Notes: generated by a model not told the origin, from the letters alone. A DNA stretch of 62,339 nt, filler included, from Bonamia ostreae (GCA_040357525.1; 29 parts of 29 records of this genome joined end to end with filler, not necessarily neighbours in it); one strand, 5' to 3'. Positions 28 to 58,994 are shown, counted from the first letter of the whole stretch. Made by a program: numbers and translations.

Positions 28-1390
28 CTAATAACAAAATTTAAAATCTAAACAATAAAATTTAAAATCTTCATTTTGCTTCATTTCGTTCTCAATCAAC
101 TCAATATCTTTAAGCGCTGAAAGTGTGCCAGGACTCAAAAAAGAATATTTTGGATTGTAAAAGAGATAAACAGATTTTATCTCTTTCGGCAAAATGTCAA
201 CTACATTAACATAAACAATCTCATTCTCGATTCTCAAAATCGCAAAATAACTTCCAAATTTCCCTTCACACTTTTCTGGAGCTTTACTTCCAACAATTGA
301 CTGATTTTTAATCGGAGAAGTGCACAGAAATTTTTCGAAACGGCTTTCATCGATTTCTTTTTTGTCTCGTTTGTGAATTTTTGTTTCATAGCATAAAAAG
401 ACCTCAAAAATGTCATCCGAATATTTTGCTGGCAAAAGCTCAAAACTAAATTTTTTTGAAAATTTCGAATAGTTTTTCTTTTTTGAAGCTTTAAAATTGT
501 TGCTTGCAGAAAAAGTTTTAAAATCTCGATTTTCTTTTAAAATTTGTAGCAGCAAAACGGACTGATTTTTTGTCTTCGAAGCGATTAAAAATTTTCCACT
601 TAAAATTTTGCACAATTTTTCCGAAAATTGCGCAAAATTTTGGTTAAATCTGTCAAACTTTTCCAGATATTTGTAGAGCTTAATGGGCAGATTTGTTATG
701 ATACAATTTGATTTTCTGCTGTGCACTTTTAGCTTTTTTATAAAAAATTTTGATCGTTAAAAAATTTGAAACATCCCAATTTTCGTCGCCAACAACAAAA
801 TCTTCAAAGCCCTCGTAGCAATTTAAGAATTCCAATTTGGCAACAACGAATTTTCGTATTTGCGGATAAATTCCGTTTTCTTTGGACAAAATCTGATTCA
901 GTTTCCTAAAATCAGTTTTTCGAATGTGACTGTTTTCGCTCGTTTTGGTCGGATTTGTGTACTTTCCGAACCGATTTAACACTTTTCTCTGCGATCTCGA
1001 AGCTTTAAAATCGCGCACGTCAAGTCGCATTGGATAAGCCGGGCAGCAGGAACTGGAGGGACAAACTAAATACAGTAAATTGCCGCTTCGAACAAAGCCG
1101 GCATCCGCGAATTTTTGGTAATCGGCCGGCGATAACGAGTCTGTGGTGACGTAGAACATTTTTTGTGTGGCGAACGGCCGTTTGCAATAACTGCAATTTG
1201 AAGCGATTAAACCGTTTATCGTTATAAACGGCTTCAAATGCTCTGATTTTAATAAATTCAACTTTTTGCTATCGAAAATATCTCTTGTTCTGGAAGATCG
1301 GGCACCAACGACAGCAAATTTTTGATTTGCTAAAATTCAAAATTGAACTTTTTGGTCGATTTGCTCTGCGCGGTTAATATTGTTGTTCAT
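28..1390 (-). CDS. ATE1: Arginyl-tRNA--protein transferase 1 (3' end probably truncated by the contig edge)
   Basis: N-domain CSYCK..YQKFADAGFVRSGNLLY..SCCPAYPMRL and C-domain VVDILPKEIKSVYLFYNPKYSFLSPGTLSALKDI. ATG at 1390; GT-AG introns at 1330-1348 (19 nt), 1243-1262 (20 nt) and 733-772 (40 nt) restore one frame. Confidence 0.92.
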
Positions 1391-1630
1391 TAAATATTTA
1401 ATGATTTCGAAAATAGGGTTGTCCATTCAAGCTCAAAAAAATAAATATTTAAGAAAGGCCGATTTTAGAAATGCTAAGTCCGAAAGAAAAATTATATGAA
1501 CCGTTTTTAGCTTTGTTGTGGCTATTTATTTCGTAAAAACTGTTTAGCTCTTTCGAGCTCATTTTGATATTAAATTAACAATTTGTAATAATCGATAAAA
1601 TCTCCATTTCCAATAATCCGCGAGCTTTAA

Positions 1631-2065
1631 ATGAGCAGAAAAAGTTTTGCTTTCGTTAATTCGAGATTACGACTACGAAGGCGAATTGCTAAGCGACAAA
1701 CAAGTCGAGCAACAAGAAGATTCGCCATTTTACAAAACGCTTTCTTTGGAAAAAATCGAAACCTTGTGGGACATTTTTTGGTTGTTTTTGATCATTTCAA
1801 AGCCAATCCGCGGAGAAATTTAAGGATTCGAAGTGTCTCGGAAAGAGACGACTGGACGATAATGGGACGCCGCAAGAATTTGTCTGGAAAACTTATCAGG
1901 AATGCTTCGAGTGTGTCAATGATTTGGCCAACGGGTTGCAGAAATTGTGCAACGATTTGGTTTTAGGGGACGTTGGTGGCGGCGTTAATTTGAGTGAAAA
2001 TGATCTTTCAAGAACAAACGATGAAAATAACCAAAAAATGGATGAAAACGAAAACGAAAAAATCG
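1631..2065 (+). CDS. Long-chain acyl-CoA synthetase, N-terminal part (3' partial)
   Basis: Removing 22-nt introns at 1644-1665 and 1781-1802 gives TLWDIFCQSAEKFKDSKCLGKRR..FVWKTYQECFECVNDLANGL, which matches the ACSL/LACS N-terminus. It is not visible as one ORF in the track. Confidence 0.8.
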
Positions 2066-2165
2066 NNNNNNNNNNNNNNNNNNNNNNNNNNNNNNNNNNN
2101 NNNNNNNNNTTAATTAATTAANNNNNNNNNNNNNNNNNNNNNNNNNNNNNNNNNNNNNNNNNNNN
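2066..2165. other. Artificial contig spacer N44-TTAATTAATTAA-N44 (first of 28 identical spacers)
   Basis: The same 100-nt spacer, with stops in all six frames, recurs about every 2.15 kb. Contig lengths fall monotonically from 2065 to 2035 nt. ORFs ending in X...LIN are artefacts of it. Confidence 0.99.
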
Positions 2166-3411
2166 CAAAAGATTTAAAAATTTTTATAAACATCTCAAAT
2201 TTTAAGCCAAAACTTATTTTAAGAATTGTTGCAACATTATAAATAATTTTAACTACTATTATTTTGTCAAAAATTACGATACGGCCAAGTAATATTTTTT
2301 AATAGCAAAATATTTTAATTCGAAAATTTTACCGAGACGCTTTCTATTAAATTTCTTACCAGTTTGTTTGGTGTTATAATCCAGCAATTTGTTTTTTACT
2401 TTTTACATTTTTAAAATTACACACAAACATCATTCATCCTTCCTAAAAATTATAGTTGAACTATTAATTTCCATTGACATTTATGCAAACATTTTTTAAT
2501 TGCATCCGTACTCTTAGATCAAACCACTCAGCATTGCGCCAAATTGGTAATATATAATCTTAAAGACTTCTAAAGTGTTTGAACTGTTTTAAATTTAAAA
2601 AATGACTTTTGATTCAATTTTTGATAAAAGTAATGAAATGATATACAACTTACTAAAAATTGATAGAAATAACTAACATTTTAATGGAGAAATACGGTTC
2701 ATTCTAATAGGTCATTCTAATAAGTCTCGAAGCCCTCACATAGGGCAAATGTATTAAAGACATTTCATTTAGAACATGGCTTTGACAATCATATAGCACT
2801 GAATTCATATACTAGATTTGAATTCATAAATTTAATATTTATTTCCAAATGTAATGTTGCAGTTGGAATTTTAAAGTTTACATGACGTGGACATTCAATG
2901 TGCCATCATTGTACTATTATTCACAAAGCATGAACGTTTGCCCCAATCGATGTACCTCAACAGAGAGGCGAAAATTAAAAACAATCATCAATTAACTAAT
3001 TTCGCTAATATTTTATTAATTTCGATTACACGAACCCACCTGACCGTCCATCTTCTAGCTCATAAATTTAAGGATCAAAACTTTTAGCTGCAACTTTTAT
3101 CAACATAATGTCTGATAAACCAGCTATTAATATTTGTGTGGAAAAGGCAATACCAGGCTTCGAATATGAGTACGGATTGGATAATAATATTATTCTGCAG
3201 AAAGATCCTTTTGTGTTGTACTGCATTAAATTCAAAACATTTTTTCAAAAATAGCTTTTGTATCCATTTTTTTTGTTAAATAATTATTTGAGAAGTCGAC
3301 GCCAAAAAGGATAAAAAACTTTCACCTAAAATTGCTAAAACAGCAGACATTTTGTATTCTAAGACATTTCCTTTGAAAAATAAAGAAAAAGAAAATATAT
3401 TTGGATATAAT

Positions 3412-57285: not shown

Positions 57286-57408
57286 TAAATTCTTTATTAC
57301 AGTAATTATTAAAATTTGTTTATATTATAAAATTAGACAACAACTTATTTCAATAACTATATGTGAACAGTTAACAAATCATTTTTTTCGCAATTAGCAA
57401 TATCGAAA

Positions 57409-58066
57409 ATGGGTAATTTAAAATTAAACAAATATAAGTGACTGTTGTACTAGCCGGAGATCAAAACAGAAAAAAAGGAAAACGATTTCTCTCGAAAAAT
57501 AACACAAAACAATTTTTCACGAAAAATGGGCTCAGGAACAAACCGATTAAGAAAATAAATCAATCCAAAAAATTTAGTTTCACTACAATAAGTTCCCAAA
57601 CACATAAAAAAATCGGAACTAGTAAAAATTTCAAGTATGGAAATGGAAAGTTTTTTTGTCAAAATTAAAGAAAGAACGTTCGAACAAATAAAACATTTAA
57701 GAAAACAACAAAAATTCCCTTTTTGAAAAACAAAAATTTTGACAAAAGTTTTTCCAAAAGCTACAAATTTAAATTTTAGACATTAGCTCGAACGACAAAG
57801 TCACATTACTGTTAAAGGGATTGCCTTATAATATCCGCACCAGCGAAATAATCACGGTGATTTTTGCAATTCTAACTTTTTAGAACAAACTTAAATTGTT
57901 AAACAAGATTATAAGCGTTAAAAAATTTTTGGTTTGACGAAGACACTTCGTTTTGAAGATTTTTGTATTTGGGTATCGGCCATTAAAATATTTGCAAAAT
58001 TTCTACTTAGCTATTTCTAATATATAGAAAATCTTTGCAGAAGATGACAAGATTCTCAACGTCGAT
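57409..58066 (+). CDS. Basic N-terminus plus RRM protein (3' partial)
   Basis: ATG G|26-nt intron 57413-57438; RNP2-like LLLKGLPYNIRTSEI followed by a 27-nt intron at 57857-57883. Confidence 0.5.
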
Positions 58067-58166
58067 NNNNNNNNNNNNNNNNNNNNNNNNNNNNNNNNNN
58101 NNNNNNNNNNTTAATTAATTAANNNNNNNNNNNNNNNNNNNNNNNNNNNNNNNNNNNNNNNNNNNN

Positions 58167-58994
58167 AAATGGTTCGTTCCTCCTCCGGGAAGGCTTCGGA
58201 TATATCCTTCGCTTTGCCGAAGACAGTCAAAGTTTTTGAGGTGGGCGTGCTATGGAACCTCGCAAAAGAGCCGTGAGACTTTTTCCTCACGGCCAATTTT
58301 TTCTTCTTCGTTTCTTCGCGCTCGACGAGAAATCTTAGCGAAAGGGCGTTGCGCTCCTCCGTTTTTTTGGCCTCCTTCAGGAGATGTTCCTGTGAGAACT
58401 TTTCTCTCGGTTTGTGTTGCCGCGGTCTCGTCTCCTTCCAATTTACGCTTGTTCAACCTTTTTAGAAAAGTCGGACACTTTTATGTTTTTGTAAGTTTCG
58501 GTTTGTTCCGCGGTGCTTTTCCGGAGGCGGTAAATTTTTTTGACGTTTTTTTTGTGTTTTTTCGATTTGCGAGTTTTTGTTTTTGGTTTAGATCTGGCCA
58601 GAAGGGGGTCTTTGTAGACGCCGTTTTTGTTTTTTCTGTCCTTCTTGCGTTCTTCTTGAAGGAGGATTTCGTCTGCGAGTTTGCCATCTTCTTCCGCCTC
58701 CTCCGATTTTGATACTTCGTGGCTAATGTCGGAGTCGCTGACGTCCGCCCCTTTGCGTTTTGAGAGGCAAACCTGGTCGTTCGTATTGATACTCGTCTTC
58801 GTTGTCCTTCGGGTTTTCTTTGAAGATTTCCATGTTCCAAAACTCCTCGTCGCCGGAAGACTCGTCTTCCTTCGTTCTTATGATTGCGTTGTGAATTGGT
58901 TTTCGAACCTTAATGTCCTCCTTCGCGAGCTCTTTGGTCTCATTGGGAGATTTTCCAGATCCGTTTCTGAGTCGTATTCTGAATAAGACGACAT
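58167..58994 (-). CDS. YL1/Vps72/Swc2-like H2A.Z chaperone, N-terminal part
   Basis: Introns at 58877-58908 and 58751-58772 give EEFWNMEIFKE..DEYQ..DVSDSDI..VYKDP..RKSTAEQT, similar to the YL1 N-domain. Confidence 0.55.

Follow-up and report, generated by a model that had tools for sequence, protein, structure and literature searches.

How is an intron recognised when its 5' splice site lacks the purine at position +3, one of the most conserved intron features of eukaryotes, whose donors almost universally begin with GTA or GTG? The question is raised by a stretch of 62,339 bases (the window, meaning the whole of the DNA analysed) assigned to Bonamia ostreae, a protist lethal to flat oysters. 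Among 47 introns assembled in this window, 43 start with GTT, 3 with GTA and 1 with GTG. An earlier note on the same DNA had counted about 53 GTT starts in some 58 introns, a proportion that our own list reproduces. We hold it to be almost certain that the introns of B. ostreae carry a lineage-specific 5' splice-site signal, G-U-U-U. These introns are chemically ordinary: they have GT..AG ends, are present in the DNA and are cut from the RNA.

The window consists of 30 contigs of 2035-2065 nucleotides (nt) each, in descending order of size and with a GC content of 25-39% per contig; the joints are runs of N flanking the 12-mer TTAATTAATTAA. Contigs 21 (40996-43046) and 27 (53880-55923) encode proteins that are 100% identical to NCBI entries of B. 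ostreae. The first is P0001, of 381 residues, entitled 'U5 small nuclear ribonucleoprotein component, partial [Bonamia ostreae]', to which the EFTUD2/Snu114 exon 42531-42800 (- strand) matches at 100%; the second is P0121, 'MHBO_002710, partial [Bonamia ostreae]'. On the strength of these identities, the non-host contigs are assigned to the haplosporidian B. ostreae (Haplosporida, Rhizaria), the flat oyster parasite. According to the accessible text of the genome paper, the published assembly of this species comprises 12.24 Mb in 9705 scaffolds (N50 1417, 33.3% GC), was annotated with funannotate trained on the published transcriptome, and still contains some host scaffolds.

Our 47 introns (Table 1) are those of a gene finder, after corrections, together with annotated introns. 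The gene finder uses dynamic programming on GT..AG ends, open reading frames, codon log-odds and an intron penalty, and has no donor model; all figures were obtained with retrained codon scores, a first version having been too weak. For 21 of the introns, support is independent of the analyst's choice of donor, and comes from comparison of RNA with DNA (3), two NCBI models (10), the predicted protein P0122 (2) or alignment to Pfam, PDB or homologues (6). In this set, 20 of the 21 donors are GTT and 17 are GTTT.

RNA support covers a single gene, on contig 23, for which RNA run X3 yields a contig of 4237 nt at a depth of 275. Three of the four introns predicted there are missing from the RNA contig and continuous in DNA runs X1 and X2, while the fourth is retained. 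Read alignment independently reported GT..AG ends at two of the skipped stretches, and the 27-nt gap is compatible with them. In addition, GT..AG is found at all 10 junctions implied by the two NCBI models; for the 26 introns known from the gene finder, these ends were assumed, and they are hence no test of them. Run X9 covers 46815-46970 only and is uninformative on splicing. The retained stretch, 45649-45693, interrupts a WD-repeat-like frame with an in-frame TAA and is kept in an abundant RNA; it may be a poorly spliced or retained intron, or the frame may truly end there.

Several junctions that had been read from conserved motifs are fixed by outside evidence. In EFTUD2, HVIV|GTGEL and HR|GGGQ both agree with P0001, whose spliced protein aligns over 381 of 381 residues to six of six full-length homologues, with no gap within 3 residues of a junction (five alignments are gapless; in the remaining one, the single gap is at residue 83, well away from the junctions). 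The MDY|VSWYSVTPE junction of TGS1 is settled by PDB chain 3gdh_A, whose residues 53 and 56 are matched to D and S, respectively, with exactly two residues between them. At DAPVP|YMVG in the DENN gene, the GTT donor scores 195 bits against homologue P0123, which reads EAPVPFMLG there, versus 186 bits for a rival GTACCT donor; the public model P0122 leaves this intron unspliced. The window includes two spliceosome genes, Snu114 and the small nuclear RNA (snRNA) cap methylase TGS1. On contig 27, the gene finder read through three 21-nt introns of P0121. Since 21-nt introns that are in frame and free of stops are invisible to reconstruction from open reading frames, both intron counts, the earlier one and ours, are probably too low. 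Two further likely GTT introns lie outside the 47. On contig 18, the stretch 35106-35504 (+) starts with GTTTAA, is stop-free and in frame, and splits a zinc-finger motif (..CVQCA / RRFFSDENSLKSHKRTKLHKK); on contig 20, a 19-nt GTTTTT..TTTTTAG stretch (39970-39988, +) is the sole solution that joins two frames.

It might be argued that there is no special signal at all, and that T at +3 reflects T-rich introns or a biased choice of donors by readers and predictors. The DNA is indeed AT-rich: of the 5459 GT dinucleotides in the window, 45% have T as their next base (43% in exons, 47% inside introns). Moreover, B. ostreae transcripts served to train the predictors behind the NCBI models, and the gene finder, from which alone 26 of the 47 introns are known, placed 14 of 21 checkable introns exactly. 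However, intron interiors contain as much A (39.4%) as T (38.5%), yet A stands at +3 in 3 of 47 introns. The comparison of +3 T with intronic T, which had been named as one test of the claim, gives 91% against 38.5%. A bias of hand-splicing, which the earlier note had conceded, does not account for the pattern either: the donor-blind gene finder still chose GTT in 38 of 44 introns, versus 11 of 26 on antisense strands (56 of 145 when the penalty on introns was low) and 66 of 138 among the unchosen in-frame GTs beside its junctions. Overall, the controls give 39-48% GTT, against 86-91% at real donors (binomial p = 1e-10 for 43 of 47 against 0.47), and GTT is the donor at 13 of the 14 junctions pinned by RNA, Pfam, PDB or homologues. 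Only one in-frame donor is possible at 6 of 44 junctions (5 GTT, 1 GTA), too few to decide alone. Five finder introns were replaced on outside evidence or re-reading, namely EFTUD2 intron 1, phospholipase C intron 2, two DENN introns and a false gene join on contig 29, and each replacement donor is again GTT. On contig 29, the rejected 303-nt 'GTCCGA' intron had fused two genes, and its replacement (58908-58877) comes from frame reading alone. The explanation by artefact is already contradicted by these controls, and we regard it as very improbable.

The host offers an internal comparison. It had been proposed that host-like exons in the window mostly keep GTA donors; the exon ends GAAG|GTATAG and AAAG|GTAATT, the second exon lying behind a pyrimidine-rich acceptor, fit this, but they are two donors read by eye on one contig (contig 4), and Pfam placed no further host exons beyond it.

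The signal itself is short. Over all 47 introns, T reaches 91% at +3, 66% (31/47) at +4 and 53% (25/47) at both +5 and +6, and is at background from +7 onwards (20/47). In the 21 supported introns, T makes up 95% at +3 and 81% at +4, and nothing stands out from background between +5 and +8 (T in 10/21 at +5, 9/21 at +6). A purine at +3 occurs in 4 of 47 donors (1 of 21 supported), and G at +5 in 4 of 47 (2 of 21), close to the roughly three counted earlier; as a set, these donors do not follow the GTRAGT pattern complementary to a standard U1 5' end. The last exon base is G in 13 of 47 cases, and GTTTTT, the most frequent hexamer, opens 13 of the 47 introns. U12-type introns have the rigid donor motif (A/G)TATCCTT, and none of the 47 donors begins with GTATCC. 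As to the exceptions to GTT listed earlier, one GTAAAT donor is real, being established by RNA at 45439, but GTAATT, GTACAT and GTGATT were not located among the 47.

The 3' splice site also looks unusual, with the ending (A/U)AG. Acceptors usually read YAG behind a pyrimidine tract. Here, position -3 is A in 24 introns, T in 15, C in 5 and G in 3 (11 A, 7 T and 3 C in the supported set), AAG is the commonest ending, and the last 10 intron bases are A-rich, not pyrimidine-rich. Two size classes can be told apart, one of about 20-35 nt and one of longer introns (57-366 nt); the supported range is 20-366 nt. Repeats in tandem, with periods of 31-92 nt, make up most of the sequence of many long introns, so that the length range looks like a core class of 20-35 nt plus minisatellite-swollen introns.

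How might such donors be read? A standard U1 snRNA 5' end pairs with little beyond G+1 and U+2 of GUUU, and recognition must then presumably have changed. The premise of poor U1 pairing, put forward earlier, holds in view of established U1/U6 pairing, the lack of +5 G and the low frequency of exonic G at -1. No snRNA gene was detected in the window by an Rfam scan at E<=1, which returned only a histone-stem-loop-like match; we therefore infer the mechanism. The closest parallel is Entamoeba, as described in the accessible text of the preprint by Roy and Bowser (10.1101/2022.06.08.495308): donors read GUUUGU(U) in 88-90% of introns, the U1 5' end is 5'-AACAAAC-3', the ACAGA box of U6 is unchanged and pairs better with GUUU, and the U1 of Mastigamoeba has changed as well. 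Bonamia shares U at +3 and +4, an AT-rich parasite genome, and a donor that misfits standard U1 and pairs better with U6 ACAGA. By analogy, we tentatively propose as the likeliest change, at a little under an even chance, that the B. ostreae U1 snRNA has co-evolved with the GUUU donor. A residues in place of the two pseudouridines facing +3 and +4 would create a 5' end ...AAAC able to pair with GUUU. With the U6 ACAGA box, itself unaltered, +3 would form a further G.U wobble and +4 an A-U pair.

The parallel has its limits. In the same text, Entamoeba keeps G at +5 and adds U at +6 and +7, all near-invariant, whereas the Bonamia donors have rare +5 G, no signal past +4 and a top hexamer in little more than a quarter of cases. 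In addition, the two lineages are unrelated (Amoebozoa and Rhizaria). Bonamia is a second lineage with U at +3, carrying a shorter and looser signal than that of Entamoeba.

Several points weigh against the reading as a whole. The name B. ostreae is tied to two contigs, the remainder being assigned by composition and by gene and intron style, and 26 of the 47 introns come from the gene finder alone. A short, loose GUUU, unlike the near-fixed heptamer of Entamoeba, is equally compatible with a four-base match to U1 and with recognition that is centred on U6 or assisted by proteins. At least one GTAAAT donor (45439-45505) is spliced efficiently, so that A at +3 is tolerated. Neither a U1 nor a U6 gene is seen in the 62 kb of the window. 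Among lineages with atypical donors, Thecamonas, Mamiellales and 69 Saccharomycotina kept a standard U1, according to the available part of 10.1101/2022.06.08.495308. Finally, Rfam scans of the related mikrocytids found only U2, U4 and U6, and U1 may therefore be lost or unrecognisable in this group.

Some of these points would suit a standard U1 5' end (ACUUACCU) that pairs only with +1 and +2, the site being fixed later by U6, U5 and Prp8. The U6 ACAGA box would then supply the G.U at +3 and the A-U at +4, possibly helped by U-binding proteins of the U1C, Luc7, TIA1 or Nam8 type. We consider this unlikely; it accommodates the standard U1 of most atypical-donor lineages, the degeneracy of the signal, the spliced GTAAAT donor, and the mild rise of T at +5 and +6 over the 38.5% background. 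On the other hand, in the text at hand the donors of Thecamonas, Mamiellales and the yeasts deviate at +4 or elsewhere and retain the +3 purine, and Entamoeba, the only lineage with +3 U found in print, changed its U1. Furthermore, the 21 supported introns show no such excess of T at +5 or +6, which leaves no clear U-rich protein site, although no search for such a protein was made.

It is also conceivable, but distinctly doubtful, that the U1 small nuclear ribonucleoprotein has been lost or reduced beyond recognition, GUUU being what the remaining readers, U6, U5 and Prp8, require. Within the accessible text of PMC10245619, mikrocytids yielded only U2, U4 and U6 snRNAs and 17-19 spliceosomal proteins, and the genome paper, in its available part, reports loss of splicing genes on the branch to paramyxids and mikrocytids. 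However, that branch excludes Bonamia, whose introns the same paper calls 'canonical'. A reader consisting of U6 alone would be expected to prefer G at +5, which is found in 4 of 47 donors, and introns of up to 366 nt would usually need early pairing of their ends. That B. ostreae, and perhaps haplosporidians generally, splice hundreds to thousands of introns without U1, from a bare GUUU read by U6, U5 and Prp8, accordingly seems improbable to us. If, instead, U1 has been rewritten as we propose, Bonamia would provide a second independent case in which an snRNA and a splice site have evolved in step at +3 and +4.

Other lineages offer partial likenesses, as far as the accessible texts go. The mikrocytids Mikrocytos mackini and Paramikrocytos canceri (PMC10245619) are also Ascetosporea, with very short introns and an unusual spliceosome, but their introns are highly uniform, all of 16 or 17 nt. 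No such fixed length is seen in Bonamia, where the only two 16-nt candidates are unsupported calls of the gene finder. The GUAUGU donors of Saccharomycotina, Giardia and Trichomonas (10.1101/2022.06.08.495308) likewise depart from GURAGU and have a +4 U that can pair with U6; unlike those of Bonamia, they keep A at +3, G at +5 and standard pairing with U1. Dicyema and myxozoans (PMC13644364) are parasites with introns of about 20-27 nt and much reduced splice-site signals, but they are animals, and their 5' signal, 'GTa', has A at +3. A dicyemid or myxozoan origin of the contigs, considered at first, was given up in view of this signal and of the protein matches to B. ostreae. Ten metagenome loci related to Snu114 were considered as a further source of comparison; the six examined (L003, L004, L006-L009; 43-50% GC, 47-73% identity, GTA-type sequence after the matched pieces) are unrelated eukaryotes and uninformative on haplosporidians.

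The public annotation already contains the GTT pattern implicitly. Introns go unmentioned in the transcriptome paper, and no published account of a GTT donor motif in Bonamia or haplosporidians was found in open literature text, figures, supplements and non-open papers aside. Entamoeba has given the most direct evidence of co-evolution between snRNA and splice site, and a second, unrelated lineage would allow an independent test. The test case differs in having a looser GUUU without +5 G, AAG-type acceptors, and introns that are either about 20 nt long or swollen by repeats. On the practical side, gene finders and spliced aligners that expect GTRAGT, or that set the minimum intron size above 20 nt, will produce wrong gene models for an oyster pathogen of economic importance, as suggested by the DENN intron skipped in P0122 and by the three 21-nt introns that our own gene finder read through.

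Table 1. Introns, host-like exons and intronic repeats in the window (coordinates from the first base of the window; donors given as intron positions +1 to +6).
Feature	Coordinates	Strand	Length (nt)	Donor	Evidence and remarks
Intron, contig 23 gene	45439-45505	+	67	GTAAAT	Skipped in X3 RNA contig, GT..AG; continuous in X1, X2
Intron, contig 23 gene	45945-45971	+	27	GTTTTA	27 letters missing from X3 RNA contig; present in X1, X2
Intron, contig 23 gene	46177-46424	+	248	GTTTGA	Skipped in X3 RNA contig, GT..AG; present in X1, X2
EFTUD2/Snu114 intron 1	42801-42879	-	79	GTTTTT	P0001; homologues gapless
EFTUD2 intron 2 (HVIV|GTGEL)	42295-42529	-	235	GTTTTA	P0001, homologues; filled by 49-nt tandem repeat
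EFTUD2 intron 3	41998-42103	-	106	GTTTAA	P0001, homologues
EFTUD2 intron 4	41653-41822	-	170	GTTAAA	P0001, homologues; filled by 48-nt tandem repeat
EFTUD2 intron 5 (HR|GGGQ)	41185-41501	-	317	GTTTAT	P0001, homologues; sole in-frame donor there
MHBO_002710 intron	54698-54791	-	94	GTTGCA	P0121, gene finder
MHBO_002710 intron	54447-54472	-	26	GTTTTT	P0121, gene finder
MHBO_002710 intron	54243-54263	-	21	GTTTCC	P0121 only; in frame, stop-free
MHBO_002710 intron	54006-54026	-	21	GTTTTT	P0121 only; in frame, stop-free
MHBO_002710 intron	53897-53917	-	21	GTTCGC	P0121 only
DENN gene intron	49870-49889	+	20	GTTTCG	P0122; gene finder chose 49862-49914 (GTTTTC)
DENN gene intron	49973-49992	+	20	GTTTTT	P0122, gene finder
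DENN gene intron (DAPVP|YMVG)	51085-51450	+	366	GTTTAT	Pfam DENN match spans DAPVP; blastp
Phospholipase C intron	5280-5409	-	130	GTTTTT	PI-PLC-X positions 18/22 need 3 residues; unique solution
Phospholipase C intron	4846-5030	-	185	GTTTTA	57-nt tandem repeat; sole in-frame GT..AG solution
UbiA/COX10-like intron	9546-9602	-	57	GTTTTT	UbiA profile position 81 reached from both sides
SDF transporter intron	33550-33572	+	23	GTTTTG	SDF profile gap 261-266 equals 6 spliced-in residues
TGS1 intron (MDY|VSWYSVTPE)	29497-29517	-	21	GTTTCC	PDB 3gdh_A
ATE1 candidate intron	679-772	-		GTTTCA	Gene finder only; acceptor uncertain (679, 733 or 658)
ATE1 candidate first intron	1330-1501	-		GTTCAT	Gene finder only; alternative GTTTTT at 1540
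Candidate intron	1644-1665	+	22	GTTTTG	Gene finder only
Candidate intron	1781-1802	+	22	GTTGTT	Gene finder; alternative GTTTTT at 1784
Candidate intron	4023-4148	-	126	GTTACT	Gene finder only
Phospholipase C first intron	5833-5988	-		GTTATT	Acceptor 5833 or 5860; donor common to both in-frame solutions
Candidate intron	9837-10064	-	228	GTTTTT	Gene finder; filled by tandem repeats
EF-hand gene intron	13937-13962	+	26	GTTTTT	Gene finder; EF-hand matches on both sides; length presumably fits calmodulin
Short-chain dehydrogenase intron	14652-14682	-	31	GTTTCA	Gene finder; adh_short positions agree within about 2 residues
Doubtful candidate	15735-15750	-	16	GTTATT	Gene finder only; below the size of any supported intron
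Candidate intron	24429-24463	-	35	GTTTTT	Gene finder only
TGS1 upstream candidate intron	29966-29996	-	31	GTTTCG	Gene finder only
Candidate intron	30831-30957	+		GTGATG	Gene finder; ambiguous, alternatives GTTTTT at 30836 and 30856
Candidate intron	31282-31636	+	355	GTTTTG	Gene finder; filled by 31-nt tandem repeat
Candidate intron	32741-32765	+	25	GTTTTT	Gene finder; sole in-frame donor
Candidate intron, contig 23 gene	45649-45693	+	45	GTTATT	Gene finder; ends ACAG; unspliced in X3 RNA contig
Candidate intron	47891-47920	+	30	GTTTTT	Gene finder only
Candidate intron	52466-52704	+		GTTATT	Gene finder; weak gene model
Candidate intron	53069-53116	+		GTACAA	Gene finder; weak gene model through low-complexity sequence
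Doubtful candidate	53336-53351	+	16	GTTCCT	Gene finder only
Candidate intron	55434-55463	-	30	GTTTAA	Gene finder; upstream of NCBI model start codon, outside P0121
YL1-like gene, candidate first intron	58877-58908	-	32	GTTCGA	Three-frame reading only
Candidate intron	58751-58772	-	22	GTTTGC	Gene finder, three-frame reading
Candidate intron	58427-58446	-	20	GTAAAT	Gene finder, three-frame reading; 23-nt GTTGAA..GGAAG alternative in frame
Candidate intron	61157-61239	-	83	GTTTTT	Gene finder; sole in-frame donor
Candidate intron	60594-60804	-	211	GTTTTT	Gene finder; contains 61-nt tandem repeat
Host-like Ig I-set exon	6895-7231	+		GTATAG	Pfam I-set; donor at 7232 read by eye, no RNA support
Host-like Ig I-set exon	8150-8440	+		GTAATT	Pfam I-set; acceptor TTTCTATTAG before, donor at 8441 after
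Tandem arrays in introns	4877-5027, 9845-10061, 30852-30950, 31303-31562, 41672-41819, 42300-42528, 60637-60773				

The range covered by the earlier note began at 733, one of the acceptor options of the ATE1 intron, and ended at 58908, where the candidate first intron of a YL1-like gene starts. This gene, so named from a presumed resemblance, is one of two that lie head to tail about 260 nt apart on the - strand of contig 29 (59254-59330 and 58877-58995): the one ends ...VKHYCY-stop, and the YL1-like gene starts MSSYSEY. A protein search with the latter found nothing among proteins of at least 178 residues.

The X3 RNA contig extends well past the contig 23 gene (45297-47344, + strand) on both sides, and departs from the genomic sequence at 47027, 30 nt past the stop codon, where there is no GT. 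A chimeric assembly, transcripts that overlap or a different allele could each account for this; transcripts that seem to be polycistronic are mentioned in the transcriptome paper.

On contig 28 (56940-57330, -), a RING-finger-like frame (CTIC..CCHVFCK) runs past two in-frame TAA codons, as C-I-M and W-T-K-N-K-S-D-C-P. Another frame, beginning with KFCLKC, follows 170 nt farther downstream, and no sensible GT..AG intron joins the two. The frame could be a decayed duplicate or could belong to another organism or another code; the ciliate code lengthened frames in all contigs and was uninformative.

The histone 3' stem-loop-like match lies on contig 6 (12829-12874, +) and scores 31.8 bits, under the gathering score of 34 bits, with no histone reading frame upstream of it; the same contig contains tandem repeats of 29-105 nt at 11829-12231. 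Finally, contig 14 (25928-27981) is the most GC-rich of the window (37.7%). Pfam found nothing in the one frame scanned, and its broken frames resemble, by eye, a retroelement polymerase; this contig is probably host repeat DNA.

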